Shown here piece after piece: positions 4,090-49,919 of a stretch of 64,000 bases of DNA. Each line of letters opens with the position of its first letter. The first letter of the stretch is position 1. The DNA comes from an uncultured Verrucomicrobiae bacterium (GTDB lineage: Bacteria > Verrucomicrobiota > Verrucomicrobiia > Limisphaerales > Palsa-1400): the NCBI GenBank assembly GCA_963764165.1, contig CAVXRD010000004.1, positions 464,164 through 528,163 on the forward strand. The letters are read 5' to 3'. A program made the position numbers and the translations under genes. The notes beneath the pieces are model-generated. The model searched no databases, had not been told where the DNA came from, and worked only from the letters and a program-made list of their open reading frames with translations.

Positions 4090-4716
4090 ATGAAGTCCAT
4101 TAAAAATTTTGCAGTGATGATCGTGGTGTTGATCGCCATGCTGTTTGCCTCATTGCGCGCGCGCGCGCAAGGCGGCGGCAGCGCCCCGCAGAACCTGGGA
4201 CCGCAGGGCGCCACGACCGTTGTGCTGGCGACCAATTATCCTTTCGCCTCGCTGCCAGCCAGTTCCACCAACACGTTTCCGCAGACTTATACGGTCACGA
4301 ATATTTATTCGAACGTGTTCTCGATTCCGGTCACCTACGTGACAAACATCACCACTAACACGGTGACAGGTTATATTGACCTCACCGGCCAGCTCGATCT
4401 GGCGATCCAGACTGGTTTTTCATGCACGAACCCCACCGACGTTTCGAACGTGGTTTGGAAGCTGATGCCGTCCCTCGACGGGGTCAATGCCGATACGACG
4501 AACGCCGCCTGGTGGGTCACAAACACCAGCCCGGGCAGCAATGGGCTTGTGCAGACGACTGTTTTTTCCAGCGCCCAAAAATCAGGCATTGCCGGATTCT
4601 TTGTGGGAGAGGTCATCAACCTGAATACGAACCCAATTTTCCCGTTCTTGACCAACGCGACCGGCAGCAATTACCAGTTCATGCAGGTACGCGGAACGAA
4701 GCCTGTCCGTTATTGA
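4090..4716 (+). CDS. hypothetical secreted protein (signal peptide) in the head module
   Basis: MKSIKNFAVMIVVLIAMLFASLRARAQG is a classical signal peptide. ATG lies immediately after the stop of the previous gene. Confidence 0.5.
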   Translation: MKSIKNFAVMIVVLIAMLFASLRARAQGGGSAPQNLGPQGATTVVLATNYPFASLPASSTNTFPQTYTVTNIYSNVFSIPVTYVTNITTNTVTGYIDLTGQLDLAIQTGFSCTNPTDVSNVVWKLMPSLDGVNADTTNAAWWVTNTSPGSNGLVQTTVFSSAQKSGIAGFFVGEVINLNTNPIFPFLTNATGSNYQFMQVRGTKPVRY

Positions 4717-4717
4717 T

Positions 4718-5113
4718 ATGACGAAAGTAGCCCTTTTGCAATTGGCCCAGGCGACCGCCGCAACGGTGGTCACCGGGAGCGCGTCCGCCCTGGCGGCGGA
4801 TCAGGCGATGGTGAATGCCTTCGTCGGCACCGGCAATCCGGCGACGGATTATCCCGGGTTCAAGCAGAGTTTCGGCCGCGAGCTGCAAAGCTACCGCCAA
4901 GCTGCACAAGCCGACGCAGCGCCCGCGACCGCACCCGGCGCAGGCCCGAGGACGCAGGCGATCTCGGCTGAAGTCTTCGCCAAATTGCCGCCTGACATGC
5001 AGGCTCGATTGGTGGCGGCCAACCCGGCTCTTGCCAATGTGGTTGCGGCTGCGCCCGCGCCTGTATCCGCAACGGCTGCGGCTCCAGTTGCATCAGCGCC
5101 ACCGGCAGCGTAA
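4718..5113 (+). CDS. hypothetical Ala/Pro-rich phage protein
   Basis: ORF tightly packed after 4090..4716 and followed by an intrinsic terminator. Confidence 0.4.
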   Translation: MTKVALLQLAQATAATVVTGSASALAADQAMVNAFVGTGNPATDYPGFKQSFGRELQSYRQAAQADAAPATAPGAGPRTQAISAEVFAKLPPDMQARLVAANPALANVVAAAPAPVSATAAAPVASAPPAA

Positions 5114-5138
5114 GATCATTTTTTGTGTGGGGGGAATC

Positions 5139-5177
5139 GCGGGCGGCTTCTGTCGGGAGGCCGCCCGCATTTTTTTT
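5139..5177 (+). terminator. rho-independent terminator
   Basis: Stem GCGGGCGGC (5139-5147) pairs with GCCGCCCGC (5160-5168), with a 12-nt loop, followed by A + T8 (5170-5177). Confidence 0.65.
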
Positions 5178-5240
5178 CCAACCCTTGCCGCGCCGAAGCG
5201 CCAGCGAAGGCGGGTGCCGCAATTCCGCTGCTAGCTCAGA

Positions 5241-5564
5241 ATGAGCCCACTCGGCAGCATGCACAATCAGGCGCTTCGCGACTTGGAACGTCTCCTTAAA
5301 AATCCACAGTTGAAGTGGCTTGGCTTCCCTTATGTTTGCGCGCCCTCCACGCTCGAGCGCGGGCAGACCATCGGTTTCGGGGGCCGATTGTATGACGTCA
5401 AATTGACACTCACCGTGCGGACGGAAGTTATTAAAGGCGCGGCCAAACCGTTGGAGTCAGGAAAAGTCATCGAGTATGACGATGAACAATACCGCATCGC
5501 CGTCGCCAAGACCGCCTCCACCGGCGATCACATTCGCTTGACACTCATTGATCCCAACCGATGA
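5241..5564 (+). CDS. putative head-tail adaptor/connector protein
   Basis: 107-aa ORF in the position and size class of head-tail joining proteins. No recognised motif. Confidence 0.4.
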   Translation: MSPLGSMHNQALRDLERLLKNPQLKWLGFPYVCAPSTLERGQTIGFGGRLYDVKLTLTVRTEVIKGAAKPLESGKVIEYDDEQYRIAVAKTASTGDHIRLTLIDPNR

Positions 5565-5565
5565 C

Positions 5566-6393
5566 ATGGCCAGCGATATCCAATTCTCGGTCGACATGCA
5601 GTCGTTTGGCTCGCAGCTCGCGCGCCTGGCGATGGCATCGAGGAGGACGAACAAAGAGGTCCTGATTCAACAGTGCCGGATCATGGCGGTGGATTTAATC
5701 AGATCCACCCCGCCGACCGGCAACCGGCCTTTGACCGAATCTTTTGCCGCCCAAAAGAAAAAAGGCGAAATGTCGGTCGACCGCGATATCACCAGGCTTT
5801 TTCAGCCCCTGACGACCATTCGCGCCGTGCTCGATCCCATGCCGCGGCGCGGCCACTACAAACCGAGCAGGCTCGACTATTTGAAGCATCTCGCGGAACG
5901 CGGCCAGTTTCAGGAACTGAGCGAAGCGATGTTTGATATGCAGATTACGGACGAGCGCGTCCCGATCGTCGCCGCCATCACCACGGAAGAGTACCGCGCG
6001 GAGTGGATGCTCTTCGCCACGCGCGGGACCGTCAGCGCAAAGCGGGCCCGCCGCACGCTCGTGTGGGACAGCAGCGCCCTGGCGGTCGTGCGCGAAGAGG
6101 TGAAGAAACGCGTCGGCTGGGCCAAAGCCGGCTGGATGCCCGCCGCGCGCCACTTGCAGGCGAAACGGCTGCCGGCGTGGATCACCGACAAGAACGCCCC
6201 TGGCGGCTTCATTGACGACACCAACGATGCCGACGAGCCGGCATTCACTTTCATTAACAACGTCAAGTATATTGCATATTTGAACAATGGAAACCGGCTG
6301 TTGCTCCGGGTTATTCGCGAACGGCAGCGGGCCATGGAAATTTCCATTGAGCACGCGCTGGAGCATTACATCGAGGAGTTTAACGCGGCCTGA
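5566..6393 (+). CDS. hypothetical phage structural protein
   Basis: ATG lies 2 nt after the preceding stop (a TTG at 5548 is an alternative). Co-oriented and tightly packed in the structural module. Confidence 0.5.
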   Translation: MASDIQFSVDMQSFGSQLARLAMASRRTNKEVLIQQCRIMAVDLIRSTPPTGNRPLTESFAAQKKKGEMSVDRDITRLFQPLTTIRAVLDPMPRRGHYKPSRLDYLKHLAERGQFQELSEAMFDMQITDERVPIVAAITTEEYRAEWMLFATRGTVSAKRARRTLVWDSSALAVVREEVKKRVGWAKAGWMPAARHLQAKRLPAWITDKNAPGGFIDDTNDADEPAFTFINNVKYIAYLNNGNRLLLRVIRERQRAMEISIEHALEHYIEEFNAA

Positions 6394-35357: not shown

Positions 35358-35790
35358 CCTTTTGGCGTTAGGGCAGTCGCAGCATACCCAGACAGCGCAA
35401 CGCAGGCAAGACGCTTCATTAAGCCGGAACGATTCGGTTGGATTTGGGAGCGCGGCCGTCCCGGTCGCTCTGGCCGGCGTCTCGCCGGACAGCCTGGCAA
35501 ATTCTTGGCGATCACTGTTTGAAAAATTGCCTTTGCAAAAAGAGTTTTCGGCGGGACGCCGAAAACAGCGGTCGAGACGACCGCGCTCCTCGAAACCAAT
35601 TTGCCTCCCAAATATTATTGAGGGTTACACTCCCGGCGCGTTTGCAATCCGTTTGGCCGCAGACGGCGTCGGACAAAAGAGCCACAGTGCCAGATCAAGC
35701 CAGCCGCGCGATCAGTAGGGCATTGAGTCAACTATAATAATTAGGCGGGAACCCTCTGGATCGGCCTATTATGCTTTCCAAAAAACAGGT

Positions 35791-35830
35791 GTGATTTACT
35801 GAGATTTGGTGAGATTTGCTGAGACTGGGT
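35791..35830. repeat. four tandem 10-bp units (GTGATTTACT GAGATTTGGT GAGATTTGCT GAGACTGGGT)
   Basis: Read directly; helical-turn phasing; about 90 bp left of the hexamer array. Confidence 0.6.
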
Positions 35831-35917
35831 TGGAATCCGAGGCCCTTGTCTCTTTTTGACTCGCTTCGCCAAATCGGCCATTGGGTGGCATATGTATACA
35901 TACCCCCCTAAAAAGCC

Positions 35918-35963
35918 GTCACACCCGTCACAATGTTGTCAATCAACGACTTAGTCCGTCACA
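35918..35963. repeat. GTCACA hexamer array, left part (H1-H3)
   Basis: GTCACA at 35918, 35927 and 35958. The array continues after the IS at 37314, 37324 (cTCACA) and 37337. Confidence 0.7.
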
Positions 35964-35966
35964 AAT

Positions 35967-37302
35967 GGTTCCTCCACATTTTCAGTGGAATTAGTGCCGG
36001 GCTCTGGCTATGCCTTGGGCATGACGCCAGAAAAATTATTTCACGAATTGTTGGGACTCGGAATGAAGTGGGAAGTCACCGAAAGCCGTTTTGAATCCAG
36101 CAGCGGGACGGTATCCTTGGAAATCCGTGAAACCTCGGAGCTATGGCCCACGCTTCGCTGCCCCAAGGACGGCGGATTGGTTTCTTGCTACGACCACACC
36201 GAATCGCTGACCTGGCGCCACCTCAATGTTTTCCAGCATCGCTGTGAGATCACCTGCCGGCTGCCGCGCGGCAACTGCCGCCAGTGCGGCCATGTCTTTC
36301 GGGTGCGCCCGCCTTGGGAGGGGTTGAGCACTCACTTCACCAAAGGGTTCGAAGCCTTCGCGCTCCTGCTCATGCGCGAGATGCCCATGGCCAAAGTGGC
36401 CGAGGTGACCCAGGAGAGCGACATGCGCCTGTGGCGGATGCTCTTCAAGCATGTGGAGGGCGCTTACGCCCAAGCCGATTTTAGCAACGTCTGCTGCGTG
36501 GGCGTCGACGAGATGGCCCTGCGCAAGGGCCAGCATTACATGAGTGTCTTTGCCGATTTGGCGGCCAAGAAGGTGATCTTCGCCACCGAAGGCCACGGCC
36601 ACCAGAACGTGGGAAGTGTTTGTCCAGGCCTTGGAGGCTCACAACGGCGATCCGCGCGCCATCACCCAGGTGAGCATGGATATGAGCGCGGGCTACCAGA
36701 AGGGAGTCCAGGAGAACTGCAAAAACGCGCGGGTCGTTTTTGATAAGTTTCACGTCTTGGCCAATGCCAGCAAGGCGGTGGACCAAGTGCGCCGGGCGGA
36801 GTCGCAGGTGGGCGGGCAGGAGGCGCGGGAGTCGCTGCGCAAGAGCCAGTGGCTCTGGCGCAAGAACCCGGAGAACCTCAACGAGGAGGAGGCGGCCCGG
36901 CTGGCCAAGATCGAAGAAAAAAATCTCTGCACCAGCAAGGCCTATCAGATGCGCCTGGTCCTGCAGGACATCTATCGCAGCCCCACCGCCGGAGAGGCTC
37001 AAAAGCGTTTTAAGATCTGGTGCCGCTGGGTGCGGTGGGTGGCGCGATTTTACAAGTCCTACATTTTCAAGGCCATGGTCAGGATGGCCGACCAGATCAC
37101 CGATCACCTGCAGGGCATCCTGGCCCACTGGAAATCGGGATTGACCAACGCCTTTATGGAAGGACTCAACAGCGTCTTCAGCGCTGTCAAACGCAAGGCC
37201 CGCGGGTTTCGTTCCCCCGTTTACCTCACCACCATGCTCTATCTGGTGGCCGGAAAACTCCGCCTCCCCCATTTCTAATTCCACTGAAAACGTGGAGGAA
37301 CC
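35967..37302 (+). mobile_element. ISL3-family insertion sequence (1336 bp) with 28-bp inverted repeats and an 8-bp TSD
   Basis: IRL GGTTCCTCCACATTTTCAGTGGAATTAG (35967-35994) against IRR 37275-37302, 27/28 matches. Direct repeat TCACAAAT at 35959-35966 and 37303-37310. Confidence 0.85.
36021..37278 (+). pseudogene. ISL3-family transposase interrupted by a +1 frame change near 36585-36592
   Basis: N-terminal zinc-finger-like CPKDGG...CRQCGH, then VDEMALRKGQHYMSVFADL. The reading frame jumps between ORF 35985..36743 and ORF 36616..37278 (DMSAGYQKGV...FDKFHV...). Confidence 0.8.
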
Positions 37303-37313
37303 TCACAAATACC

Positions 37314-37342
37314 GTCACAAACCCTCACACCGACCCGTCACA
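37314..37342. repeat. GTCACA hexamer array, right part (H4-H6)
   Basis: GTCACA at 37314, cTCACA at 37324, GTCACA at 37337. An inverted copy TGTGAC lies at 37400-37405. Confidence 0.7.
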
Positions 37343-37467
37343 AAATCGCCCCTGCCAGCCAGGCGCGCCCAAAACATGCCTGGCCGCAATATGAACTTGT
37401 GTGACGGGATTGTGGTCCAGTTTGGACATGCTCCTTCGTCGAGTATTGGGCTGGCGCCCGCGCGTGG

Positions 37468-37527
37468 GTGCAATGCGGTTTTTGCCGCAAAAAACAGAGG
37501 GTGCAATAGGGTGCAATAGCATGCAAT
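37468..37527. repeat. GTGCAAT repeats (three at 10-bp phasing) flanking the palindrome TTTTTGCCGCAAAAA
   Basis: GTGCAAT at 37468, 37501 and 37511; ATGCAAT at 37521; palindrome at 37479-37493. Confidence 0.6.
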
Positions 37528-38176
37528 GCCCCGCCGCAATTTGACGGGGCGGACCTGCGTGTCCGCCCAAATATTCAGTCCGAGCCCAGCGACAACCAAT
37601 TTACGGTGGGATGCGGATATGTCTTTGCGGCCACTCTGCGCACTCATCTTCTCTGCGCGAGAGTTCCTTTTGTGGTGCCATGAAACGCCATCGCGCGCGG
37701 AGTCGCCGAGAACGCAGAGATTCCTCGCCGCCTGACATGAACGCAAAATATCAAAGAACACGCCCTGATGGCGACAGGGTGAAAAATAACGCCGAAAGTC
37801 CTTCGTGTCAATTCAGCTTGTAATCGCACGTTTCTGTGGTATTGATGGTCTTGTGGCACGATTTTGGGGGAAAAATGCGAAAAACGGAATCTGGAACGCC
37901 CGAACTCAGGAGAAGTGATCGAAGTTGGACCCAAGCACATCGTTAAATTGTATGCCTTGGCCAGTGAGCGCCGTTAGACACGACATATTTGTAGCAACCA
38001 CGAAGAATGAGCCCCAAGCCCCGTAGGGCGCGACATATTGGCAATGTCGCTTTTGCACCAAAACCAAAAGACCGGGAAATTCAACGCAAGGACGCCAAAG
38101 CGCAAGGGCACAGCGCGGCAAAGCCGCAACCAAAAATAAGAGGAAAGCGCCGTCCGGTCTGGGTAAGATTGGATGT

Positions 38177-39778
38177 ATGCAAAACAAACCGCTTACCCAT
38201 GACGGCGCTTCCAACTCTTTTGTACACAAACATGCTTCCTCAATTCTAGGAGTTCTTTCGGGCTTTGATCGCCTGCGATTGCGCGGGACGCTGCGCCAGT
38301 TGTACGGCCCCCAGGTGATGGAGGCCTACTTGAACGCCTGCCACATTCTGATCAAGGATTTCAGCCAGTTGGTCGAACGGACCACCAAAGCGGTCAAAGA
38401 CAAAGCCAGGGCCCTGGCACAAACAGCCGGGCGGCCTTTTCTTTTCGTCCCCTCCAGCCAAACCAGCAAGGAGGAGGTGGCGCGCAAGATTGCCGCCCGC
38501 GATAAAATCACCGAGGGACTGATCGCCATTCTCAATTGCACGGAACCCTGCATGTCCTTTCAAGTCGTCGGAAACCCCCAAACCAAACACATTGAGGTGA
38601 AGGTTCAGCAGCGCAAGTGCAGCCATCTTTATTTCTATTTCGAGCATTCCAAGTTTGGCTTCATGCACCTGCGCCTGCAAACCTGGTTTCCCTTCCAGAT
38701 TAATATCTGCCTCAATGGCCGGCATTGGCTGGGAAAGCAGTTGGATCAGGCAGGCATTGCCTATCAAAAGAAGGAGAACACCTTTTTGCGGGTGGCCGAT
38801 ATGGGGCGCGCTCAAGGCCTGCTGGACCAGCAACTGCAAACTGACTGGCCCAAGGAGCTGGGCCGGCTGCTCAATGAGGTTCATCCCCTGCACCGGTCGA
38901 TTTGCCAGCCGCTGAACCTCAAATACTATTGGAGCGCTTCGGACACCGAATATGCCACCGATGTCATTTTCAAGGAGCCCGAGAGCCTGGCCCGGCTTTA
39001 TCCCAGCCTGGTTCACCATGCCATCAGTTCCTTTTCCAGCGCGGACGTGATGAGGTTTTTGGGCCGATACGTTCCCATCAGCACGGGCAGGGTGTACGGC
39101 CAGTTTGAGGGCGAAATCACCAGCGACACCAAACGGCGGCCGGAGGGCGTGCGGGTCAAGCACAGTCTTAACGGCAACTCGATCAAATTTTACGACAAGC
39201 AGGGCTCGGTTTTGCGGATCGAAACGACGGTGACGCACCCGGAGGAATTTAAAGTTTATCGCAAACCGGAAGGCCGGCCCAAGGAGGCCAAACGCTGGCT
39301 GACATTGCGCCGGGGGCTGGCCGACCTGAAACGGCGCAAAGAAATCTCTCACCGGGCCAATGAACGTTATTTGCAGGCGTTGGGATCCGTCAGCGGAACG
39401 GTGCCGCTGTTCCAATGGGTTGAAAAATGCTGCAAGCCCCTGCGGCAGGCGGGGCGGCGCTACCGCGCCCTCAATCCTTGGGCCCCGGAGGACGGACGCC
39501 TTTTGGAAATGGTCAGCCAGGGAGAGTACGCCCTCAACGGCTTTCGCAGTCGAGACATTCGGCAGGCCTATTTTCCCAGCCGGTGCGATGACCGCGAACT
39601 CAAACGCAGAATGGGCTGGATTGGACGCCGACTGCGGCTCCTGCGAGCGCATGGCTTGATCGCCAAAGTCAGCGGCACCCACCGCTATGTTGTCACCGAG
39701 AAAGGGCGCACCACCATTACTGCGCTCTTGACCGCCCGCAAAGCGGACGTGGACAAATTGACCAAACTCGCCGCCTAA
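38177..39778 (+). CDS. hypothetical 533-aa protein, probably associated with a mobile element (family not identified)
   Basis: Long, clean ORF between REP-like repeats in the island. The segment VRVKHSLNGNSIKFYDKQGSVLRIETTVTHPEEFKVYR is reminiscent of xYDK...LRxE motifs in replication-initiator/transposase-like proteins. Confidence 0.5.
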   Translation: MQNKPLTHDGASNSFVHKHASSILGVLSGFDRLRLRGTLRQLYGPQVMEAYLNACHILIKDFSQLVERTTKAVKDKARALAQTAGRPFLFVPSSQTSKEEVARKIAARDKITEGLIAILNCTEPCMSFQVVGNPQTKHIEVKVQQRKCSHLYFYFEHSKFGFMHLRLQTWFPFQINICLNGRHWLGKQLDQAGIAYQKKENTFLRVADMGRAQGLLDQQLQTDWPKELGRLLNEVHPLHRSICQPLNLKYYWSASDTEYATDVIFKEPESLARLYPSLVHHAISSFSSADVMRFLGRYVPISTGRVYGQFEGEITSDTKRRPEGVRVKHSLNGNSIKFYDKQGSVLRIETTVTHPEEFKVYRKPEGRPKEAKRWLTLRRGLADLKRRKEISHRANERYLQALGSVSGTVPLFQWVEKCCKPLRQAGRRYRALNPWAPEDGRLLEMVSQGEYALNGFRSRDIRQAYFPSRCDDRELKRRMGWIGRRLRLLRAHGLIAKVSGTHRYVVTEKGRTTITALLTARKADVDKLTKLAA

Positions 39779-39959
39779 AACTTTGCCAAAAATGAAGAGT
39801 TTTCCGAAATAGCACTGCAAGGTTTTGGAGACAGACGTATCAATGCAAATTCCTTTGCGATTTTGCAACTTTGCGCCCTTGCGTTTAAACGGAGGCGGAC
39901 GGGCCATTTTGCACGCCCCAGCCCTTGCAATGGCGCGTGAGGTTGACTAAAGTTCAGTC

Positions 39960-40830: not shown

Positions 40831-41685
40831 TTGATGGTCAAGGCGTCTGTTACCCTCAGCCGCTTCGTCGCACATAGCATGAAGACAACACATCACGGAT
40901 ATTTTCAATCGCTAGCGCGTGAATTGGAGTCGCAAGCGTCACGCGTCCGCCAACTGATTGGTGACGGACATTGGGCCCACGACGGGCGGCATAAGGAAGT
41001 ATTACTCCAAAGTCTTATCCGTCGCCACTGTCCGTCGACCGTCCTTGTTAGCACTGGCTTTGTCGTTTCATCTAACGATCCCGAGGTTCGCAGTAAGGAG
41101 CAAGACGTGTTGATAATTAACACATCCACCGAAGCGCCATTATTTCACCAAGGAGACTTGACAGTTGTGTTTCCGCATACCGTCATTGCGGCAATTTCGG
41201 TTAAAACCACGATGAATGATGAAACCCTCAAAGATGTCGTCGACGGACTCGCCACTGTGCGGGAAACCGCGAGAGACTGTCAGTGCAAAGCAAACCGAAT
41301 CTGTTGCTGCGGATTCTTTTTTAACATAAAGCCGATGATTCGCCAAAAACCTGAGGCGATTTATAAAAGTCTTAAAAAGCACATTCGATCCCGGCCTATT
41401 AAACCACCGCTCCTAGAAGACGGCCTTCCTCATATTGCAGGTCCTGATGCAATCGTGGAAGCAAATGACCTGTCATTTCTGTTAGACTATACCGTTAATA
41501 ATAATATATCCGCTGCAAAAGTCCGCGGTTTCGATTGCCCGGGACTTTCCACCGCTGTATTTCTTTCATGTCTATTAGAACACATTAACTTCTTTTTTGA
41601 TCAAAGGCATTCGAAATTTAACGATTTACTTTCGAATCAACGGCTCGAAAGCATTTCGCCTCCCGAGTTTCAGATTTTACCCTGA
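40831..41685 (+). CDS. DUF6602-like protein (restriction-endonuclease-like core suspected)
   Basis: GRHKEVLLQSLIRRHCPSTVLVSTGFVV...SKEQDVLIINT...VIAAISVKTT matches my recollection of the DUF6602 pattern. The start is probably internal (MKTTHHGYF at 40879). Confidence 0.55.
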   Translation: MMVKASVTLSRFVAHSMKTTHHGYFQSLARELESQASRVRQLIGDGHWAHDGRHKEVLLQSLIRRHCPSTVLVSTGFVVSSNDPEVRSKEQDVLIINTSTEAPLFHQGDLTVVFPHTVIAAISVKTTMNDETLKDVVDGLATVRETARDCQCKANRICCCGFFFNIKPMIRQKPEAIYKSLKKHIRSRPIKPPLLEDGLPHIAGPDAIVEANDLSFLLDYTVNNNISAAKVRGFDCPGLSTAVFLSCLLEHINFFFDQRHSKFNDLLSNQRLESISPPEFQILP

Positions 41686-41695
41686 CTCTTCGCCT

Positions 41696-44600
41696 TCACG
41701 TTAAGCTTTGCACCGCGATTGGTCCCGCAAAAGCGATAGCAATATAAGCATGAGCAATCTCTCCCTGCCTCGGCCATCGCTCATGACGACTGAGCAAAAA
41801 ATCCCGACCGAATTCCTCAACTTTGAGGTAGTGCACTTCGGAATCACCGGTTATCACGCCCTGTACGGTCTTACGCACGCCCTCGCTATCGAGCAACACA
41901 GCACGAGGGTCATGCAACTGTTCCCGTGGAATCCGAGCCCTACGCAACTGAGAGAACATGGGCTCGGCCTCGGCCCACTTATGTTGTTGAACCAACGCGA
42001 CCGCGCATACAAATTTGTAAAATGGATCGCCGGAATATTTTGCTGTCGCCAGAACTGTTCTTCCCAATTCGAACAAAAATGCCCAATCAATAACGCGGTT
42101 TCGCACCTTAGAATCGTAACGGCTCACATTCCATTCGTAGTAGATGCTAGCCGCTGCCGCACACAAATCCCCCGACGGCGATAGGTTCTCCGCTTGAACC
42201 ATCTCAATGATCCTTTTACAATACGCAAATGCGTCGTTATATGCACTTCCCGCGTTCTTCTCGCGGGCCACATTTAACATTTTGCGCGCGGCTATAACAA
42301 AACCCTCTGGCCTCTTGAACTGCAGCCATAAGTCTTCGGCGCTCGCCTTAAGTTCGTCCAAAGGCGCCGTCCTTGCCTGCAATTTCCCCGATATGTCCTC
42401 CAAAAATTCAATATCTTTTGTTGGTTGGTCACGAGCTGGTCGCAATGGGTTCTTAAGTACAAGAAGTGACGAATCCACTGCGTCCAGCGCTTGATTCAAT
42501 AAAGTAAAAATATCCGCCGAAGCGATATCATTCAGTTCCGAAATCAACCTCAGCATAAGATTTGCCTGAACATGCACCGCCCGCGAATTAAAAAACGCAT
42601 CAGAACGCGCGTGGTCTAAATGACGCAATATCTCCGGCAAGCTCTCTTCGAGCCGTACGCGCCCAGCGTCCGCAGCATCGAGAATCGTAGCTGCCAAAGA
42701 CGTATGCACGTGCTCATCGGCTTCAACGCGGTCGGTGTACGGATAACTCCTCGTCACAAGCGCCGTTTCCAAAACCGACTTTGCGAATAAAGGATCATTC
42801 CCTTTTGACTTAATCCACAACCCTTTTTGATGAACTAACGTCCGGTCCGGTAGCGGCAACGCAGAAAGCGCAGTATCATAGAGCTGCAGTCCGTCCGAGT
42901 ACTCTAAATGGTTCAATTTGCTACAGGGAACCAATATACTAACAGAGAACTCCCTATAAACCAAACTCGTCCCGGTGCATGCTTTGAGAAGAGTCAAAAG
43001 ACGTTCGACCTCACCAGTATGTGCTAACTTGCCGCCGTTGATCGTCTCTATTAAAGTGCGCGTTACAACAGAGTTACGAGGTCTGTAGCATTTTGTTGCG
43101 CCATCTGGAGTCGCTTCACCATACAACAAGCCCCACGCTGGGCCCTTTTGATCAACCGCATCTACCCACTCTCGGTAAGAAATGTCTAATGCCGACACCA
43201 GCACCTCGACTGGCAGCGGCGTGTGGTAGTGATCGCACACCGCAGCCATCGCGTAAGCTTGCTTTAAGAAGGCCGAGGTTTTGTTATATGCACCGATAAT
43301 AACACGTGACAATCCACCCCGCTCTCCCAAACGCAAATATTCCTCTTGAATACTCGCCTCGATACTTTGTCGGGTCTTTGGCAAGAGCCAATATAGGAGG
43401 CCAAGCGTATCCGCCGTCCCGCGACTCGGGAAATTGGCAAGTTCAGCCTGCGCCTTGCCCTTATCAGGGAATACATTCAGGTGAACCAAATAATTTGGAA
43501 AGCTAGCTATCTCCTGCGCGTCGAAATCATCGAGCAAATTGAACTCGCGCTGCAATTCGAGCGTGCCAATCAAATCTTCAGGGTCGTTCGTCTTCCAGTC
43601 AGAAGTTCGTACAACAACGACAAATGTGCATCGAATACCGTTGTTTTGTGCGCTTGCGGCGATCGACGACACGGACAAAGAACCTAATCCAACTGGATCA
43701 TCAATAAAAAAGAAAACGCGCCGCTTATTGTCTGTAATACTGCTAAGTGTCTTAAAAAAATGACCTAGTGATGTTTGAACATTCGGATAAAAGGATCTAC
43801 GAAACCAAAAGACAAGATTTCCTTTAAACGCTAGGTCATACGCCAATCTTTTTGCTATCGTGGTTTTGCCGGATGCCGCGCTGCCAACCAGAGCGTACAC
43901 AGGCAATGCTCGAGTTATTCGTGGTGGTTTCAAAATACTGTCTTGCAATTGGTTCTCAATTGTCCGGCGGAAATCTAGCTTGTGAAAGAACGGATCCCAA
44001 GATGGAAGATTCGGGGAAAACAGCAAATCTAATAATCGCACCCTTTCTCCCTCGCTTATTTGCGATACAAGTTGCGCATTGACAACGGTGACGATATCAT
44101 TAAAAGGTATCAGCCGATCAAACTCTGATTCTTTCTTGTACAAGGCAAGTGGCTGCGTTTGTCCAGCTCCTTCCAAATCCTTCAATCGACTTATCAACTC
44201 GGGGAGACCTGCGTCCACAAAAACTACATGCAACTTTCCCGAGGTTAGCTGAAGAATAGCATTATACTCCTTTTGCGTAAATTCGGTCTTTACCAAAACC
44301 AGCGGATCTATGAAAGTCTTTCGGTCTGATAACATTTGCGACAAAAGATCAATGAAAGACCAAAGACTGCCTTTTAGGCCGAGGCATACGACGGGGTTGC
44401 CTTGCACCTTATCGGCAAAATCTTGAACGGCAAAACGCCACGTTGGGCGCCGCGCAGTGTAAATCAAGTCCGTGTATACGAAATGTTCTTCAGTATTACC
44501 AAGCAATTTAAATATTGGTACACACTTCGGCGGTAAAGGTTGGGGAAAATCCAGCACCTGTGTTGGAATCGACGCTGTAGGCTTTCGCTCTCGCTCTCTT

Positions 44601-44935
44601 AACAGTTCTTGATCAAAAATGGAATCTATAGCTAAGGAGATTACAGCAGACCATTTCAACGCGGAAATTCGTTTGATGTATTGATAGGCTTTCTGTCCTT
44701 TCAGGAATGCCTGAATAAACCCCTTTATGTCGTTTGGATCGATCCCCTGATCCACCGCGTGCTGTGCGTTCTGCAGATAGTTCTGAGTGCCATTCCCTCC
44801 CCATTTTGACGCGATCCCCGCTGACAAGTCGTGGTAAAAATCGCCTTCCGCGGTGATCCCGGGCCCGAAAATTAACCCCATCCGGCCGCGGAACAGCGGC
44901 TCGGCTTCGTCAATCGTAATGGTTTGCACGCCCAT
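41696..44935 (-). CDS. SIR2-like N-terminal domain / P-loop STAND NTPase / helical-repeat protein (Avs5-like architecture)
   Basis: GRMGLIFGPGIT (aa 17-28); ISLAIDSIFDQE (aa 99-110); KLLG (aa 143-146). Walker A GSAASGKT (aa 351-358) and Walker B VFFFIDD (aa 407-413). About 600 aa of helical C-terminal region. Confidence 0.7.
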   Translation of the reverse strand: MGVQTITIDEAEPLFRGRMGLIFGPGITAEGDFYHDLSAGIASKWGGNGTQNYLQNAQHAVDQGIDPNDIKGFIQAFLKGQKAYQYIKRISALKWSAVISLAIDSIFDQELLRERERKPTASIPTQVLDFPQPLPPKCVPIFKLLGNTEEHFVYTDLIYTARRPTWRFAVQDFADKVQGNPVVCLGLKGSLWSFIDLLSQMLSDRKTFIDPLVLVKTEFTQKEYNAILQLTSGKLHVVFVDAGLPELISRLKDLEGAGQTQPLALYKKESEFDRLIPFNDIVTVVNAQLVSQISEGERVRLLDLLFSPNLPSWDPFFHKLDFRRTIENQLQDSILKPPRITRALPVYALVGSAASGKTTIAKRLAYDLAFKGNLVFWFRRSFYPNVQTSLGHFFKTLSSITDNKRRVFFFIDDPVGLGSLSVSSIAASAQNNGIRCTFVVVVRTSDWKTNDPEDLIGTLELQREFNLLDDFDAQEIASFPNYLVHLNVFPDKGKAQAELANFPSRGTADTLGLLYWLLPKTRQSIEASIQEEYLRLGERGGLSRVIIGAYNKTSAFLKQAYAMAAVCDHYHTPLPVEVLVSALDISYREWVDAVDQKGPAWGLLYGEATPDGATKCYRPRNSVVTRTLIETINGGKLAHTGEVERLLTLLKACTGTSLVYREFSVSILVPCSKLNHLEYSDGLQLYDTALSALPLPDRTLVHQKGLWIKSKGNDPLFAKSVLETALVTRSYPYTDRVEADEHVHTSLAATILDAADAGRVRLEESLPEILRHLDHARSDAFFNSRAVHVQANLMLRLISELNDIASADIFTLLNQALDAVDSSLLVLKNPLRPARDQPTKDIEFLEDISGKLQARTAPLDELKASAEDLWLQFKRPEGFVIAARKMLNVAREKNAGSAYNDAFAYCKRIIEMVQAENLSPSGDLCAAAASIYYEWNVSRYDSKVRNRVIDWAFLFELGRTVLATAKYSGDPFYKFVCAVALVQQHKWAEAEPMFSQLRRARIPREQLHDPRAVLLDSEGVRKTVQGVITGDSEVHYLKVEEFGRDFLLSRHERWPRQGEIAHAYIAIAFAGPIAVQSLT

Positions 44936-45650: not shown

Positions 45651-48626
45651 TTATTCGCGCAACCTGAAGAACATGGTTCCCGAGGCGGTCGAGATGGTGA
45701 CGCTCCGGGTCGTGCCGTTGTCGGTAACCGGCGCGGTAACCGGACTCCAGCCGGAACCGCCGAGGTCGGAGGTCTGCTCGAGGACGTAGCCAGATTGGGA
45801 CGAGGGCCAGGAGATTACGATGGTGGAGGCGCTGCCGCCGCCGCTTCCGGCCCGGGTTAGCACGATTTGAAGTGAGGGATGCGGTGGCGTGGCTTCGGCC
45901 AGGCTGAATGCAAAAATCGTACCGCGGCCCGCAGCTCCTCCGTTGGCGGTGGTGGTGTAAAGCGTGTTCCCAATGATGGTGACGCCGGAATACGGATTGG
46001 CGCCGTCGAGATTGGTCTGGACAAAAAGGTTGGTGTCGGAGTTGAGCGCACTGAACGAGTAAAGGGTCACAAAACCGCTGCCGTCGTTGGTGTCCACTTC
46101 GAAAATCGTGCCGGAACTGTTCGCGCCTCCGCCCTCGGCCGTGCCGTACAAAGTCGCGCCGTTCAGCAGCAGCGCGCCTTCGGGATTCATGCCGTCGCTG
46201 TTGGTTTCAAGCAGCGTGGCGAAGTCGTATTGCGACTGGCTGAAGCTGTGGAGAACGGCGTAGCCGGAGCCGTCGGTGTTGATCTTGAAGACGCTGCCGC
46301 TGGAATTCGTGCCGCCAAGGCGGGTTGTGCCAAAGAGGGTGTTGCCCGCCTGGATCAGGCCGCCGTAAGGCTGGCCGAAGCCGTCGGCAAAGTTATGCAG
46401 CACATGAAAACCATTGCCACTGACGTTCACGGCGAAGAGCGCGCCCTCGCCGTTGGCGCCGCCCTGGCTGGCCGTGCCGTAAAGTGTGACGCCATCGCTG
46501 CCAAGCAGAAGAGGCGCGAGCGGATAGGCGCCGTCCGCGTTGGTCAGGCTGTAATTGGCCGTGTCGAACGTCACGGCCGAGAACTGATGGATAGGCGCGA
46601 GACCGCCCTCGCCAGCCGAGAAGATCGTCCCGGTATTGTTCGCTCCGCCGTAGCCGGTGTTGCCGTAGACCAAATTGCCGACGACAATGACGCCGCTGGG
46701 AAAGCTGCCTTGGCTGAAATCGCAAAGGGTGCTGAAGCCGGAGCCGTTGGTGCCAATGCTAAAGACCGTCCCGCCGCCAAACGCGCCCCCGGTTTGGGCC
46801 GTGCCGTAAAGCGCATCGCCGACGCAAACCAACGTCGCCACCGGCGACGCGCCGTCCACGTTGGTCTGGCCGATGGTAGGCAGCGCGCTGAATTGGTAAA
46901 GTTCATCGAGGACGCCGTCACCGTTCGTGTCCAACGAATAAATGGTGCCTGAACCGAAATCGCCGCCTTTGGACATGACGCTGAAAAATCGACCGCCAGC
47001 CAGCGTGAGGCCGGCCCGGGGATTCGCACCGTCGCTGTTGGTGGAAGCATTGAGATTGGTGTTGTAACTATAGCCCTTGGCGCCGAAGGTGTAAGCCGTC
47101 TGGCAGCCGGCCGAGATGCTGGGGCCGAGCGAGCCGGGAGCCGTGCCGTTGGTGTTGGTCACGGTAAGAACCACGCCGTAGACGCCGGCATTGGTGAACG
47201 TATGCGCTGGATTTTGATTGGTGCTGGTCGAGCCGTCCCCGAATTTCCAGAGCCAATTAGTGATCGGCACCTCAAGCACGTCCGCGGAAGGCGCCGTAAA
47301 CTGCACCGCGAGCGGCGGTGGCCCGTTGGTCGGGGTGGCGGTGAAGACGACCAACGGGTAGTAGGCGGTGATGTTCGAGCCGCTCACCGAAATGGCGAGA
47401 CCCAAATTATTGGTCACGGTGAGCTTGGGAGTGTAAGACTTGGTTTTGGTCGAGAGATACTCGGTTTCGGGATTTTGGAGCGTGCTGAAAGTGTTATTGC
47501 CGAAGCTCCAATTCCACGAGACGATGGGGTTTCCAGCCGTGTCCTCGGACGGCCCATAAAACTGCACCAGAAGCGGCATGAACCCGTTGGTGGCCGAGAT
47601 CGAGAAATCGGCGCTCGGCGCGCCGACGGAGATGTTCGAAGGGCCGACGCCGGAAACCGCCACGCCATAAATGTTGGTGGCGACAAGGCTTACAACAAAG
47701 TTTGTATTCGTGACGTAGGTATGGGACGGGTTTTGCAGCGTGCTCGTGACGCCATCACCGAAATTCCAATTCCAGTTCGAGATGGCCGAGCCGCTGCTGT
47801 CGATGTTCGTGGCGTCGAATTGGACGGTGAGCGAAGCAGGGCCGTTGGTGGTGGACGCGGTGAAAGGGAGAGTGACGGCGGTGGGTGTGTAGACGATCGT
47901 GGCCTTGAGAGAAGCGGTGGCTTGGGCGGTGAAGGTAGTCACGGCAATTTCACCTTCCAAAGGTCCATTGGTCGTGAGCGACATATTGGTGTTGATCTTA
48001 TTCGTCCACGGGATGCCCGCATTCGTGAGCGTGGTATAGAACGACCACGATTCGATAGCATCCAACGCCAGATCAGCGCCGTATCCCTCGTACAAATCCT
48101 GGAAGGGCGCGCCAGAATTAAGGGTGGCAAGCGTCTCCCAGCCATAGAGGGCGGCGGCGCTCAAAAAGACGTTCGACCCGCCCGTCTCGCTCGATGGAAT
48201 GAAATACCAAAAGCCGTTCGATCCAAGGTAGGTGGCGCTGAGGTCGTCCGACCCGGGATAGGGACCCGAGTAGTCATCGTCCTGCGTCCACTGGCCGTTT
48301 ACCGTCGTGGTGATATTTGACGCCGTGCAAGCCGCAATCAGCAAATTGGTGCCCTGAGCCCAAACGGGAAATTGTTCCTGGCCTATGATCGAGATGGTCA
48401 GATTGTCATTTTCTTGAATCGACTCGACCTCGACACCAGTCAGGACACCGTCGTTGTAGATGTTTAGGGAGCCTGTCCCGGAACCGGAGCTGGAGCCGCT
48501 GGCGCTAAGGTTGAGTTGAACGGAAATCGTCCCCACCAGGTTGGATTGGGCCCTGGCAGTGGATTGAACGGAAAGGCAGGCCAACAGGGCAGCCATGATG
48601 GCGGCGAAAAAATATAAGTTCTTCAT
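45651..48626 (-). CDS. secreted protein with PKD domains and Gloeo_Verruco (GloVer) repeats
   Basis: Signal peptide. Three repeats of the type FGDGxTSTxQNPxHTY (PKD). Repeated GGxxGxGTIF...LYGTA units (GloVer-type). Confidence 0.8.
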   Translation of the reverse strand: MKNLYFFAAIMAALLACLSVQSTARAQSNLVGTISVQLNLSASGSSSGSGTGSLNIYNDGVLTGVEVESIQENDNLTISIIGQEQFPVWAQGTNLLIAACTASNITTTVNGQWTQDDDYSGPYPGSDDLSATYLGSNGFWYFIPSSETGGSNVFLSAAALYGWETLATLNSGAPFQDLYEGYGADLALDAIESWSFYTTLTNAGIPWTNKINTNMSLTTNGPLEGEIAVTTFTAQATASLKATIVYTPTAVTLPFTASTTNGPASLTVQFDATNIDSSGSAISNWNWNFGDGVTSTLQNPSHTYVTNTNFVVSLVATNIYGVAVSGVGPSNISVGAPSADFSISATNGFMPLLVQFYGPSEDTAGNPIVSWNWSFGNNTFSTLQNPETEYLSTKTKSYTPKLTVTNNLGLAISVSGSNITAYYPLVVFTATPTNGPPPLAVQFTAPSADVLEVPITNWLWKFGDGSTSTNQNPAHTFTNAGVYGVVLTVTNTNGTAPGSLGPSISAGCQTAYTFGAKGYSYNTNLNASTNSDGANPRAGLTLAGGRFFSVMSKGGDFGSGTIYSLDTNGDGVLDELYQFSALPTIGQTNVDGASPVATLVCVGDALYGTAQTGGAFGGGTVFSIGTNGSGFSTLCDFSQGSFPSGVIVVGNLVYGNTGYGGANNTGTIFSAGEGGLAPIHQFSAVTFDTANYSLTNADGAYPLAPLLLGSDGVTLYGTASQGGANGEGALFAVNVSGNGFHVLHNFADGFGQPYGGLIQAGNTLFGTTRLGGTNSSGSVFKINTDGSGYAVLHSFSQSQYDFATLLETNSDGMNPEGALLLNGATLYGTAEGGGANSSGTIFEVDTNDGSGFVTLYSFSALNSDTNLFVQTNLDGANPYSGVTIIGNTLYTTTANGGAAGRGTIFAFSLAEATPPHPSLQIVLTRAGSGGGSASTIVISWPSSQSGYVLEQTSDLGGSGWSPVTAPVTDNGTTRSVTISTASGTMFFRLRE

Positions 48627-48822
48627 AACAAGGCTTCGCGATGACCGCGCTCACGCAACGGCACATCCCTCTACAGACCCCTTTTGGGAAAAAGGTTACA
48701 GAAAGAATGACGCCGCAAACCGACCCATCCCTGGCCACCAGATTCAACCTCCATCCGAGCATCCAGCCCCAAAAAAATGGAAATGGCGCAGGATCATCAC
48801 ATGATCTCCAGGAGTGGCAAAT

Positions 48823-49140
48823 GGTTCCTCGCCATTTTCGGTGAAATGAGACAACTCGTTAGCCGTCGTTGCGGGACAACCCATTTGGAATCCAGGGTTG
48901 GTCTTTGGTTGGCCAAAGCTCGGTATAGTATATGGTCTCGAAAAAGGGGCAACACCCGCTACACGGTTGACCATCAACGAGATAAGGGGCAACAAAAATA
49001 GCAACAAACCCGCAACAGACCCGCAACATTTCTTCCCGCGCTGTCGGGTTGCATGAAACGCGGCGTCATTCCGTCGTTCCCTGAAATTTTCATCAAGATG
49101 CCCGCACCATCATTTGTTCCATTGAAGACAGTGAGGAACC
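48823..49140. mobile_element. MITE-like 318-bp element bounded by diverged ISL3-type inverted repeats and carrying a GCAACA hexamer array
   Basis: GGTTCCTCGCCATTTTCGGTGAAATGAG (48823-48850) matches the IS IRL at 23/28. 49113-49140 matches the IS IRR at 19/28. Flanks TGGCAAAT and CTGCAAAA are only similar, so there is no clean TSD. Confidence 0.45.
48949..49028. repeat. GCAACA hexamer array (H1-H6) with the same spacing as the GTCACA array
   Basis: Hexamers at 48949, 48958 (GCTACA), 48989, 49001, 49012 and 49023. Spacings are 9/31/12/11/11, against 9/31/12/10/13 in the IS-corrected 35.9-kb array. Confidence 0.7.
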
Positions 49141-49151
49141 CTGCAAAAGCA

Positions 49152-49179
49152 GCTACAGGCCCGCTACAAACCCGTTACA
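49152..49179. repeat. half array GCTACA-GCTACA-GTTACA at 11-bp phasing
   Basis: Starts 12 nt after the IRR-like end at 49140, as H4 starts 12 nt after the IS IRR at 37302. Confidence 0.6.
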
Positions 49180-49919
49180 TTTCATCTGAGCCGGGGCGAT
49201 TCAGTTCGCATGGGGAGCGCACGCGCCTCGCGTGCAGTGTTCCGCGCCCTCGCGGAACACATTTGACGGACAAACCAATTAGTGCGCCGAATTCTCGAAG
49301 GCGACTGGCGTGGGCGTCAGTCGTCCACACCCGAGGGCGGGTGTGCTCCCCGTGATACGAACTGCATCGTTCCGGCTAAGAGGGTTGCAATGGAATGAAA
49401 CCATGTGCTTTCATGGCGTTTTGGACATGCTCCTTCGTCGAGTTTGGGCTGCGGCCTGTCACAGACCCCAAATTGCCCCGCCGAGCCAGACGGCGCAACC
49501 ATATGACGAACCGCAGTAGGAAATTGCGTGACGGGATGTGACTAGCGGGAGGCCGATTTCTCACCGGCTTCTGATCAAGCTCCTCAGAGTCTAAACTCGC
49601 TTTGCCTTGATTCCAAATGCGGGGGGGCAAACTGAAATGGGAAGATTCTGCGCATTCAACCCGGCTTTGCTCGAATTGCAGCGCAAAGAGACGCTCAATG
49701 CCGCTAATGAACCAGCCTTCGTCGTCCTTCCAGGAGGGGGTTACGACCCGCGAGCCGGTCCCAATGGCGCTGCTCCTTCGAGCGTACGAAAGGAAATGGG
49801 GTGGCCGGTATGGCCCAATGATGTGACCGCCGTTACGAACGCTGTCGCTCAAATCGGGCCCTAAATGCTGCGAGGACGCCTGGGCGTGACGGACGGGTTA
49901 TTGCCCTGTCCAATTGTAA

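Follow-up and report, generated by a model that had tools for sequence, protein, structure and literature searches.

The 64,000-nucleotide stretch analysed here (the window, below) comes from an uncultured Verrucomicrobiae bacterium (GenBank assembly GCA_963764165.1, contig CAVXRD010000004.1, positions 464,164 to 528,163 of the forward strand) and carries a 1336-bp insertion sequence (IS) of the ISL3 family within an array of short hexamer repeats. Comparison with related copies indicates that the clade of this IS very probably exerts a strong but non-exclusive target selection for a hot spot adjacent to a 20-bp palindromic core, which lies at the centre of such arrays. What the junctions display directly is the geometry of these insertions, that it recurs, and that the insertions arose independently. 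The IS itself would be an ordinary cut- or copy-and-paste element—by now a pseudogene via one extra base—that landed in the hot spot preferred by its clade. This hot spot would be set by the core of the hexamer array, an intergenic element repeated in Verrucomicrobial genomes, and the IS would insert on either side of the core, at mirror-image positions and in either orientation.

Architecture of the hexamer array

In the window and at related loci, the array consists of an AT-rich box, two hexamers (H1 and H2), the 20-bp palindromic core, and four further hexamers (H3 to H6). An alignment of 20 arrays yields the core consensus GTTGAT-N-ATCAA(C/G)GACTTAG and phased hexamers of the type G-N-N-A-C-A, whose NN positions are mostly uniform inside one array and different between arrays. 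Base changes in the core palindrome are not compensatory in this alignment, and therefore it is the sequence that is conserved and not the pairing.

Only two real cores are present in the window. The first belongs to array 1, which is interrupted by the IS and lies on the forward strand. Its left half (35893–35966; nhmmer, 3.7e-11) comprises the AT-rich box, H1 at 35918–35923 and H2 at 35927–35932 (both GTCACA), the core GTTGTCAATCAACGACTTAG at 35935–35954 with 18/20 matches to the consensus, and H3 at 35958–35963 (GTCACA); its right half (37311–37345) comprises H4 at 37314–37319 (GTCACA), H5 at 37324–37329 (CTCACA), and H6 at 37337–37342 (GTCACA). The IS in between is flanked by the perfect 8-bp target-site duplication (TSD) TCACAAAT, whose left copy at 35959–35966 occupies the positions +5 to +12 from the core end and whose right copy at 37303–37310 is its direct repeat. 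As a first-pass annotation of the window had claimed, this TSD is composed of the last 5 nt of H3 plus AAT, and H4 starts 12 nt past the end of the right inverted repeat (IRR). Upon removal of the IS and one TSD copy, array 1 becomes collinear with intact arrays (H3-AAT, then ACC-H4, H5, and H6), and uninterrupted, empty arrays do exist, both in the window (48926–49030) and in other genomes (L004a, L017a). Around array 1 as a whole, no ends resembling the inverted repeats (IRs) were found above background.

Insertion at fixed distances from the core

The catalogue of related IS copies was assembled from other genomes and from metagenomes (contigs and metagenome-assembled genomes, MAGs) and amounts to 105–107 distinct junction flanks when pooled. 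About 40–50% of these lie in arrays or at cores, the upper figure deriving from manual reading. A scan of species-representative genomes contributed 35 loci, and an unbiased metagenome scan with the exact IR pattern contributed 51 loci with 56 junctions and 52 distinct flanks, some 20–22 of them in arrays. In the Verrucomicrobiae MAG MFD01112.bin.2.19, eight of the nine copies of an 82%-identical IS sit in arrays, in both orientations; likewise, all copies on the P0003 contigs do so, and the P0002 copies are found in a degenerate array.

Distances were taken from the core and not from the hexamers, with a core defined as a match of at least 14/20 within 70 nt of the junction. Among the 22 distinct flanks adjacent to a core, the boundary falls exactly 12 nt after the core in 16 and exactly 19 nt before it in five, the remaining one being located at +29 (L127), and none was found elsewhere within 70 nt. 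With a background core frequency at this threshold of 1.5e-4 per position—determined in IS-enriched data—the +12 class on its own gives a binomial P of ~5e-43; the IS enters a set position of a repeated element far more often than expected by chance. In core coordinates, the duplicated 8-mers occupy either positions 25–32, equal to +5 to +12 from the core end, or positions −18 to −11. Both sites are mirror images of one another, as their centres lie 21.5 bp from position 7, the central base of the 13-nt palindrome, a distance corresponding to two helical turns. At the downstream site, 23 different 8-mers with the consensus YNACANNN are duplicated in one register, and therefore many independent insertions must have taken place; the upstream-site TSDs (CCGCTACA, GGGAAACA, CGGCAACA, AATTCAGG) share no common motif of this kind. 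Both orientations of the IS are found at the hot spot, and core targeting is kept across IR subtypes, with L013 and L014 (72% amino acid identity) also being located at the core. The first-pass annotation had proposed, from two loci of the window, that this ISL3 lineage selects the array as a target or is guided to it by a protein. Target-site selection is strongly supported by the share of flanks at arrays or cores and by the 21 of 22 core-adjacent flanks at just two offsets, and protein guidance is inferred.

It could be argued that no real targeting takes place and that a generic ISL3 preference for A/T-rich DNA is at work, the H3–H4 spacer being the most A/T-rich spot of a harmless intergenic repeat, where chance insertions would outlast selection. 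Such a preference is reported for IS31831 of the same family (PMC1590026), the non-array TSDs of the clade are mostly A/T-rich (TATTTTAG, AATTTTGA, CAAAAAGA), and the arrays are indeed intergenic. However, the offsets are exact to the base, 16 at +12 and five at −19, and the upstream-site TSDs CCGCTACA, GGGAAACA, and CGGCAACA are not A/T-rich. A density of two real cores per 64-kb window also stands against some 40–50% of copies at such sites, and a register cannot be fixed by selection. We consider this explanation barely conceivable.

That the landmark is the core, and not the hexamers, follows from solitary or degenerate cores, which are used at the same offsets even though they bear no hexamers on the insertion side (L150 with TSD TAACTAAG, L019 with TSD TAATTAAG, L122, L108, and the P0002 loci). 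Hence, the register with respect to the array that had been noted initially is real, and its reference point has to be moved to the palindromic core at fixed distance: the hexamers fall into this register only through their own phasing relative to the core. A transposase that recognizes G-N-N-A-C-A with its 3′ flank—like its own inner IR (CC-TCCACA-TTTTC)—and inserts between phased hexamers would account for the facts that all downstream TSDs conform to YNACANNN and end 2–3 nt before the next hexamer, that upstream-site TSDs likewise end 2–3 nt before H2, and that the IR contains TCCACATTTTC in the window or TCAACGTTTTC in relatives. Nevertheless, besides the cores without insertion-side hexamers (the right flank of L150 and L019 reads CGCCATTCC...), the equivalent H4/H5 and H5/H6 gaps are unused save for the one +29 junction, the sites are mirror-symmetric about the palindrome and about no hexamer, and clades with the GCTG-type IR, which lacks a hexamer-like motif, also reach the core (L013, L014). 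Recognition of hexamers appears improbable on these grounds.

The shared register might also reflect common descent, if array halves traveled together with the IS in a mobile or duplicated unit of more than 1336 bp. In fact, the left flank is common to L004 and L017 over more than 200 nt, a second array included, one flank is common to L001 and L002 and one to L024 and L027, and 318-bp IR-bounded elements carry an array. These instances have to be set against perfect 8-bp TSDs inside collinear arrays (window, L003, L013, and L150), the 23 different 8-mers and several hexamer types in one register, the occurrence of both IS orientations and of empty arrays, and full copies outside arrays (L036, L006, and L015), which end at exactly the same IR boundaries. 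Joint travel of IS and flanks is hence very improbable as the origin of the register.

A second locus: a MITE-like element carrying an array

The second core of the window lies in a complete array inside a 318-bp element that resembles a miniature inverted-repeat transposable element (MITE), being short, devoid of a transposase, and terminated by IRs that match those of the autonomous IS. Its IRL-like end (left IR; 48823–48850, forward strand) matches the IRL of the window IS at 23/28 positions; its IRR-like end (49113–49140, reverse strand) does so at 19–20/28 positions, and a hand comparison gives 22/28 against the "GCTG" IR subtype found in relatives. Both ends begin with the exact sequence GGTTCCTC and face outward, and only one other IR match of at least 19/28 exists in the window, at 19/28 and in coding DNA. 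The 262-nt interval between the ends holds the complete array (48926–49030, forward strand, match 1.2e-31) with H1 at 48949, H2 at 48958, the core at 48966–48985, H3 at 48989, H4 at 49001, H5 at 49012, and H6 at 49023, its hexamers being GCAACA or GCTACA. No IS-derived sequence is recognized in the interior past ~33–40 nt from each end.

On its right, the element is followed by the TSD-like CTGCAAAA (49141–49148), 3 nt, and the right half of another array (49141–49179, forward strand; GCTACA at 49152, GCTACA at 49163, and GTTACA at 49174). As reported initially, the first of these hexamers stands in the same 12-nt register to the IRR-like end as at locus 1, and the IRL-like end is preceded by GTGGCAAAT. 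The claim of a shared register thus stands for the right flank, a canonical array half, but not for the left one, where no array is recognizable. The sole feature of the left flank is the palindrome GATCATcacATGATC, 2 nt off register. The 8-mer directly to the left, TGGCAAAT (48815–48822), agrees with CTGCAAAA at 5/8 positions, so that no true TSD is present, which is compatible with decay or flank exchange.

No second copy of the 318-bp element was found within the window. Another genome carries an element of identical length and layout (L024 4535–4852; IR, ~95 nt, array, ~85 nt, IR), and in a paralogue in L003 (2810–~3130) a full IS has inserted into the internal array. MITEs of the clade fall into classes of 141, 236, 318, and 340–343 bp, and the hexamer array occurs inside the 318-bp class only; further MITE loci of the clade are L108 3–345, L115/L137, L123 6140–6375, L150 1760–1995, and L128. 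The 236-bp MITEs (L123, L150) are themselves located at the +12 hot spot of a core.

A similar picture might arise without any transposition if an ordinary array lay between two decayed solo IRs of separate origin, or between IR-like matches due to chance. The 5/8 agreement of the TSD-like 8-mers, the left flank without array, and the interior without IS-derived sequence beyond ~33–40 nt per end would fit such a situation, and 19–20/28 alone is borderline for a 64-kb window. On the contrary, both ends share the exact GGTTCCTC, at a distance of 318 bp and facing outward; the values of 23/28 and 22/28 (the latter against the GCTG subtype, compared by hand) are far above chance; an equal-length element of the same architecture exists in L024 with a paralogue in L003; and the right junction lies exactly in the hot-spot register. 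Locus 2 is therefore unlikely to have arisen without transposition.

Nor is locus 2 a rearranged duplicate of locus 1, which the first-pass annotation had named as a way in which its reading could fail: the hexamers differ between both loci, the locus-2 ends are decayed and at least equally close to another IR subtype, and two sequence modules shared by the loci (D1 and D3) appear in different order. These differences argue for an older event at locus 2, independent of locus 1. It would represent a 318-bp IR-bounded, array-carrying derivative of a sister IR subtype, whose right end sits at the hot spot of another array and whose non-array left flank might best be explained by flank exchange between IS copies.

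Recognition of the core

The question arises how a transposase could read a landmark two helical turns away. We favor, at about even chances, a transpososome that docks against a protein-bound or bent core; target bending is described as a general feature of DDE transpososomes (PMC5357137). This preference arises because an unrelated IS4-like element also uses its own fixed position in three arrays. This second IS (DDE_Tnp_1, 388 amino acids, ~1.37 kb, IR CATAAGCATTAACCTAA, 11-bp TSD GGTTTTTCGGA) is found 29–30 nt upstream of the core, directly 5′ of H1, in both orientations (L001 ~4325–5693, L002 ~4325, and L005 ~1400). Two unrelated transposases at one element argue that the array may be attractive in itself, via a bound protein or a bend, and the arrays thus receive insertions of at least two IS families. 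A direct reading of the palindrome by the zinc-ribbon/helix-turn-helix (HTH) region of the transposase is a serious alternative with a reasonable chance of being correct. Recognition by the transposase of an IR-like sequence in the core was rejected, as the similarities at TTAG and TCAACG do not hold across the IR subtypes.

For the putative core-binding factor, integration host factor (IHF) may serve as a lead only. In its right arm, the core is similar to the IHF consensus WATCAANNNNTTR; the left arm is also conserved, which is not required in IHF sites. Fourteen cores are one position off the consensus, and core 2 of the window does not match.

Several observations weigh against target selection at the core as a whole. 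The remaining flanks, about half, represent unrelated sequence, for the most part A/T-rich and with perfect TSDs, so that by no means all or nearly all copies lie in the target, and the closest relative of the window IS (P0001/L036, identical IRs, 92% amino acid identity) sits at an unrelated site with the TSD TATTTTAG. As the data are metagenome contigs and MAGs, orthologous sites of related strains may have entered the count repeatedly, and assembly chimeras may account for part of the mismatched TSD halves. The upstream site rests on only five junctions, and the YNACA common to the downstream-site TSDs makes some local sequence preference possible. At locus 2, the left flank bears no core at the expected offset (48791–48810, 7/20 to the consensus by hand comparison). 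Finally, the strict IHF consensus is present in only 4 of the 20 cores, including core 1 of the window (AATCAACGACTTA). The first-pass annotation had held that copies in unrelated targets would refute target selection; such copies make up about half of the flanks, L036 included, yet some 40–50% lie in arrays, and this yardstick was too strict for a preference that is partial.

The ISL3 element and its interrupted transposase gene

The boundaries of the IS (35967–37302) and its 28-bp IRs are as first described. IRL (GGTTCCTCCACATTTTCAGTGGAATTAG, 35967–35994, forward strand) and IRR (37275–37302, reverse strand) match at 27/28 positions (96% complementary), and an IR search of the window with up to three mismatches recovers only these two, with 0.00 expected from 100 shuffles. 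Related copies of the clade also make 8-bp TSDs. Its domains, IRs, and 8-bp TSD place the element, by descent, in the ISL3 family. A scan with Rfam detected no match in it, and no long noncoding region is present.

The transposase gene is split into two overlapping open reading frames (ORFs) on the forward strand. The N-terminal part in frame 0 (36021–36605) encodes the zinc ribbon, the HTH, and the beginning of the DDE domain, and its ATG at 36021 coincides with the MTPEKL start of 418-amino acid homologues; the C-terminal part in frame +1 (36607–37278) encodes DDE_Tnp_ISL3 and ends with a stop codon at 37276–37278, within IRR. In Pfam, DDE_Tnp_ISL3 (PF01610) is found on the C-terminal ORF with 6.8e-50 and 170.5 bits (cut-off 23), and the N-terminal 47 positions of this model match the upstream ORF. 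Zn_ribbon_ISL3 scores 26.0 bits, above its cut-off of 25.5, and HTH_Tnp_ISL3 scores 25.9 bits, slightly below its cut-off of 27.4; the 418-amino acid homologues possess both zinc ribbon and HTH. Minus one base, the two ORFs yield a 418-amino acid protein that is collinear with thousands of homologues of this length. The closest of these in the database is 92% identical and carries no name; another is labelled "ISL3 family transposase [Verrucomicrobiota bacterium]".

A frame break had been recognized correctly at the outset, but its position at 36585–36592 was wrong. DNA alignments to L036 (92.7% identical) and L004 (82.7%) place it ~15–20 nt further downstream, at a single extra A (36606; CAG-A-ACG) that both copies lack and across which the 418-amino acid homologues read EGHGHETWEAF. 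An intact ORF of ~400–440 amino acids is thus absent. Programmed frameshifting could be ruled out, since homologues consist of a single 418-amino acid ORF without the extra A. Because of this single ORF in homologues, the break is a mutation or a sequencing error, and the gene is either a pseudogene or merely appears as one through such an error.

Flank exchange and mosaic intergenic regions

Many array copies bear two different 8-mers, whose partners are found at other copies. CAACATTT, for instance, is the right-hand 8-mer of L004 and the left-hand one of L001; L004 and L017 bear CAACAAAA to their left, L024 and L027 to their right. The P0003 contigs present every combination of two left and two right flanks. 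In L155 (3143–4477), the IS is positioned between two array left halves, inverted, and bears hybrid IR subtypes (CAACG and CCACG); this looks like the inversion or recombination product of two IS copies, or like an assembly chimera. Taken as a whole, the exchanged 8-mers and flanks indicate recombination between IS copies in different arrays, some of which may be assembly chimerism in short-read contigs.

The intergenic regions around arrays appear to be mosaics. In the right flanks of both array loci of the window, 37343–37410 resembles 49470–49537 (71%) and 37421–37449 resembles 49420–49448 (93%); these are the modules D1 and D3, in opposite order, and D1 consists of the last hexamer, ~55 nt, and inverted hexamers (TGTGAC). 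In another genome (L127), homologues of window 37551–37800 and 37444–37483 surround, in permuted order, an array together with a solo IRL. The same intergenic region as array 1 also contains TGAGATTTG three times with a 10-bp period (35790–35830) and GTGCAAT(AG) three to four times (37466–37530). On visual inspection, L004, L027, and L152 show phased CACGGAT repeats, which a strict pattern search for two copies failed to return. A GC-rich, REP-like hairpin repeat (..CGGTCGAGACGACCGCGCTCC..) occurs at 35544–35589, 45685–45706, and 48636–48652 of the window and also in L019 and L106. L156, a short-read contig with the neighboring kinase gene, ends at window position 35485, ~60 nt before the hairpin copy at 35544.

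Identity of the arrays and neighboring sequence

As an exact 20-mer (GTTGATWRTCAASGACTTAG), the core occurs 23 times in IMG/VR contigs (L054–L076), some of low GC content, against ~1–2 occurrences expected by chance according to our own estimate. In these viral contigs, it often takes the form of a 27-bp palindrome (CTAAGTCGTTGAtagTCAACGACTTAG), arranged in tandem with GC-rich hairpins and located upstream of genes, of which several are HNH- or restriction endonuclease-like. This palindrome found no convincing match in a cultured-phage database, and no Rfam family was detected at either window array or at ten core-bearing viral loci. In phage DLP6, TCAACGACTTAG is described immediately 5′ of terminator hairpins (PMC5349666); the cassettes termed PeSL in phages were rejected as an explanation of the core, as their consensus differs.

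Other candidate roles were likewise discarded. Small RNA genes or hairpins do not agree with the noncompensatory core changes, and scans for sigma-70 promoters and terminators were not above shuffles. As attachment (att) sites, the arrays would lack their usual company, since neither a tRNA nor a tyrosine integrase lies near them in Verrucomicrobial loci. As partition or origin sites, they are not backed by their surroundings: the ParA close to the P0002 loci is accompanied by distinct repeats of its own, and a primase/VapE neighbor is seen only at L094. Within 3 kb of arrays, no gene family recurs except the transposase. In L084/L086, a T7-like temperate phage, a partial tRNA (putative attP) and a tyrosine integrase enclose TCAACGACTTAG and GTCACA repeats. 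On the viral contig L094 (~13737), primase and VapE-like genes are closely followed by an array of the GGGACA type whose core is canonical, as a single case. The pattern search that yielded L094 and L084/L086 returned about as many hits as expected by chance, again by our own estimate.

Between both array loci of the window, a segment of low GC content (40831–44935; 0.48 versus 0.58) encodes a PD-(D/E)xK/NucC-like nuclease (DUF6602; 40831–41685) and a 1079-amino acid STAND NTPase (41696–44935, reverse strand), and looks like a defense island. A multicopy element of 1.73 kb (38092–39818), with boundaries drawn from comparison with L157–L161 and a right end reading ...ATAGCACTGC, contains an ORF (38177–39778, forward strand) for a 533-amino acid protein. 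This protein has more than 7800 homologues, mostly on ~2-kb contigs, and several full or fragmentary copies lie on the source contig; no match was obtained in Pfam, NCBIfam, PADLOC, or PDB sequences. Its AlphaFold2 (AF2) model is confident, with a predicted local distance difference test (pLDDT) of 84 and a predicted template modeling score (pTM) of 0.78. With Foldseek, the model yielded no PDB match at E≤1e-3, and in BFVD only C-terminal winged-helix-like and weak TBP-like matches. The element may represent an IS or transposase family not described so far.

Significance and comparison with known systems

In the literature searched—ISfinder entries lying outside this comparison—we found no description of a palindrome-anchored, fixed-offset hot spot for an ISL3 element. 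Such a hot spot might serve as a model for how an IS that encodes nothing but a transposase finds a safe harbor, whether through a landmark bound by a host factor or through a second mode of DNA binding in its transposase. It could account for the mosaic, rearranged Verrucomicrobial intergenic arrays, if IS copies parked in different arrays swap flanks, and the core-plus-offset rule predicts the locations of IS, MITEs, and solo IRs in such genomes. If the landmark can be transplanted, a development toward site-directed insertion is possible.

More speculatively, and with considerable doubt on our side, the arrays might constitute a previously undescribed class of nucleoprotein sites—a palindrome-centred landing pad shared by several unrelated IS families—with the ISL3 lineage spreading the pad itself via its array-carrying 318-bp MITEs. 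If so, each insertion of an array-bearing MITE would make a new preferred target, leading to self-expanding nests and array-to-array rearrangements. Short phased repeats flanking a bend site are known from P1 parS, the P′ arm of lambda attP, the Mu enhancer O1-IHF-O2, and datA/DARS. The arrays show an outward likeness to these in that two clusters of 6-bp direct repeats with ~9–11 bp phasing surround a central site with an IHF-consensus-like right arm; however, no ParB, integrase, Rep, or transposase partner that would correspond to these systems recurs beside the arrays.

With generic ISL3 elements, the clade has in common the transposase domains, the IR length, the 8-bp TSD, the single ORF of ~418 amino acids (once restored), and its non-array insertions. 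A close parallel is the behavior of IS1397 and ISKpn1 of the IS3 family, which target repetitive extragenic palindromic (REP) sequences and bacterial interspersed mosaic elements (BIMEs). Such IS3 members, like the ISL3 clade, insert at a fixed position of a repeated extragenic element containing a palindrome, where insertion is harmless and where IS cluster. In contrast to these, the present IS belongs to ISL3 and not IS3, inserts 18–25 bp outside the palindrome on either side and not in its loop, and follows its preference only partially, with ~40–50% of copies. REP/BIME-targeting IS are surveyed by Tobes & Pareja 2006 (PMC1525189).

Site-specific homing to repeated intergenic sequences is also shared with IS110/IS1111 elements, among them REP-targeting ones such as ISPpu9 (PMC12288879), for which bridge or seek RNAs are described (PMC11208160, PMC11187229). 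These elements use a DEDD recombinase and an element-encoded guide RNA and produce no typical TSD, whereas the present system is a DDE-type ISL3 element with 28-bp IRs and 8-bp TSDs.

Integration of spacers by Cas1–Cas2 at the leaders of clustered regularly interspaced short palindromic repeats (CRISPR) is guided by IHF (PMC5224486). Like Tn7 with TnsD, this system integrates at a set distance from a landmark that a protein recognizes or bends, and outside the recognized sequence, as does the ISL3 clade. Tn7 in particular uses TnsD and attTn7 for integration at a fixed distance from a protein-recognized landmark. As opposed to both, the 1.3-kb IS encodes no dedicated targeting protein, the factor bound to its landmark is putative, and there are two mirror-symmetric sites instead of one. 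Among simple DDE IS, such a fixed-distance, mirror-symmetric target choice around a palindrome appears unusual, and might be regarded as a variant of the repeat-targeting behavior of IS.

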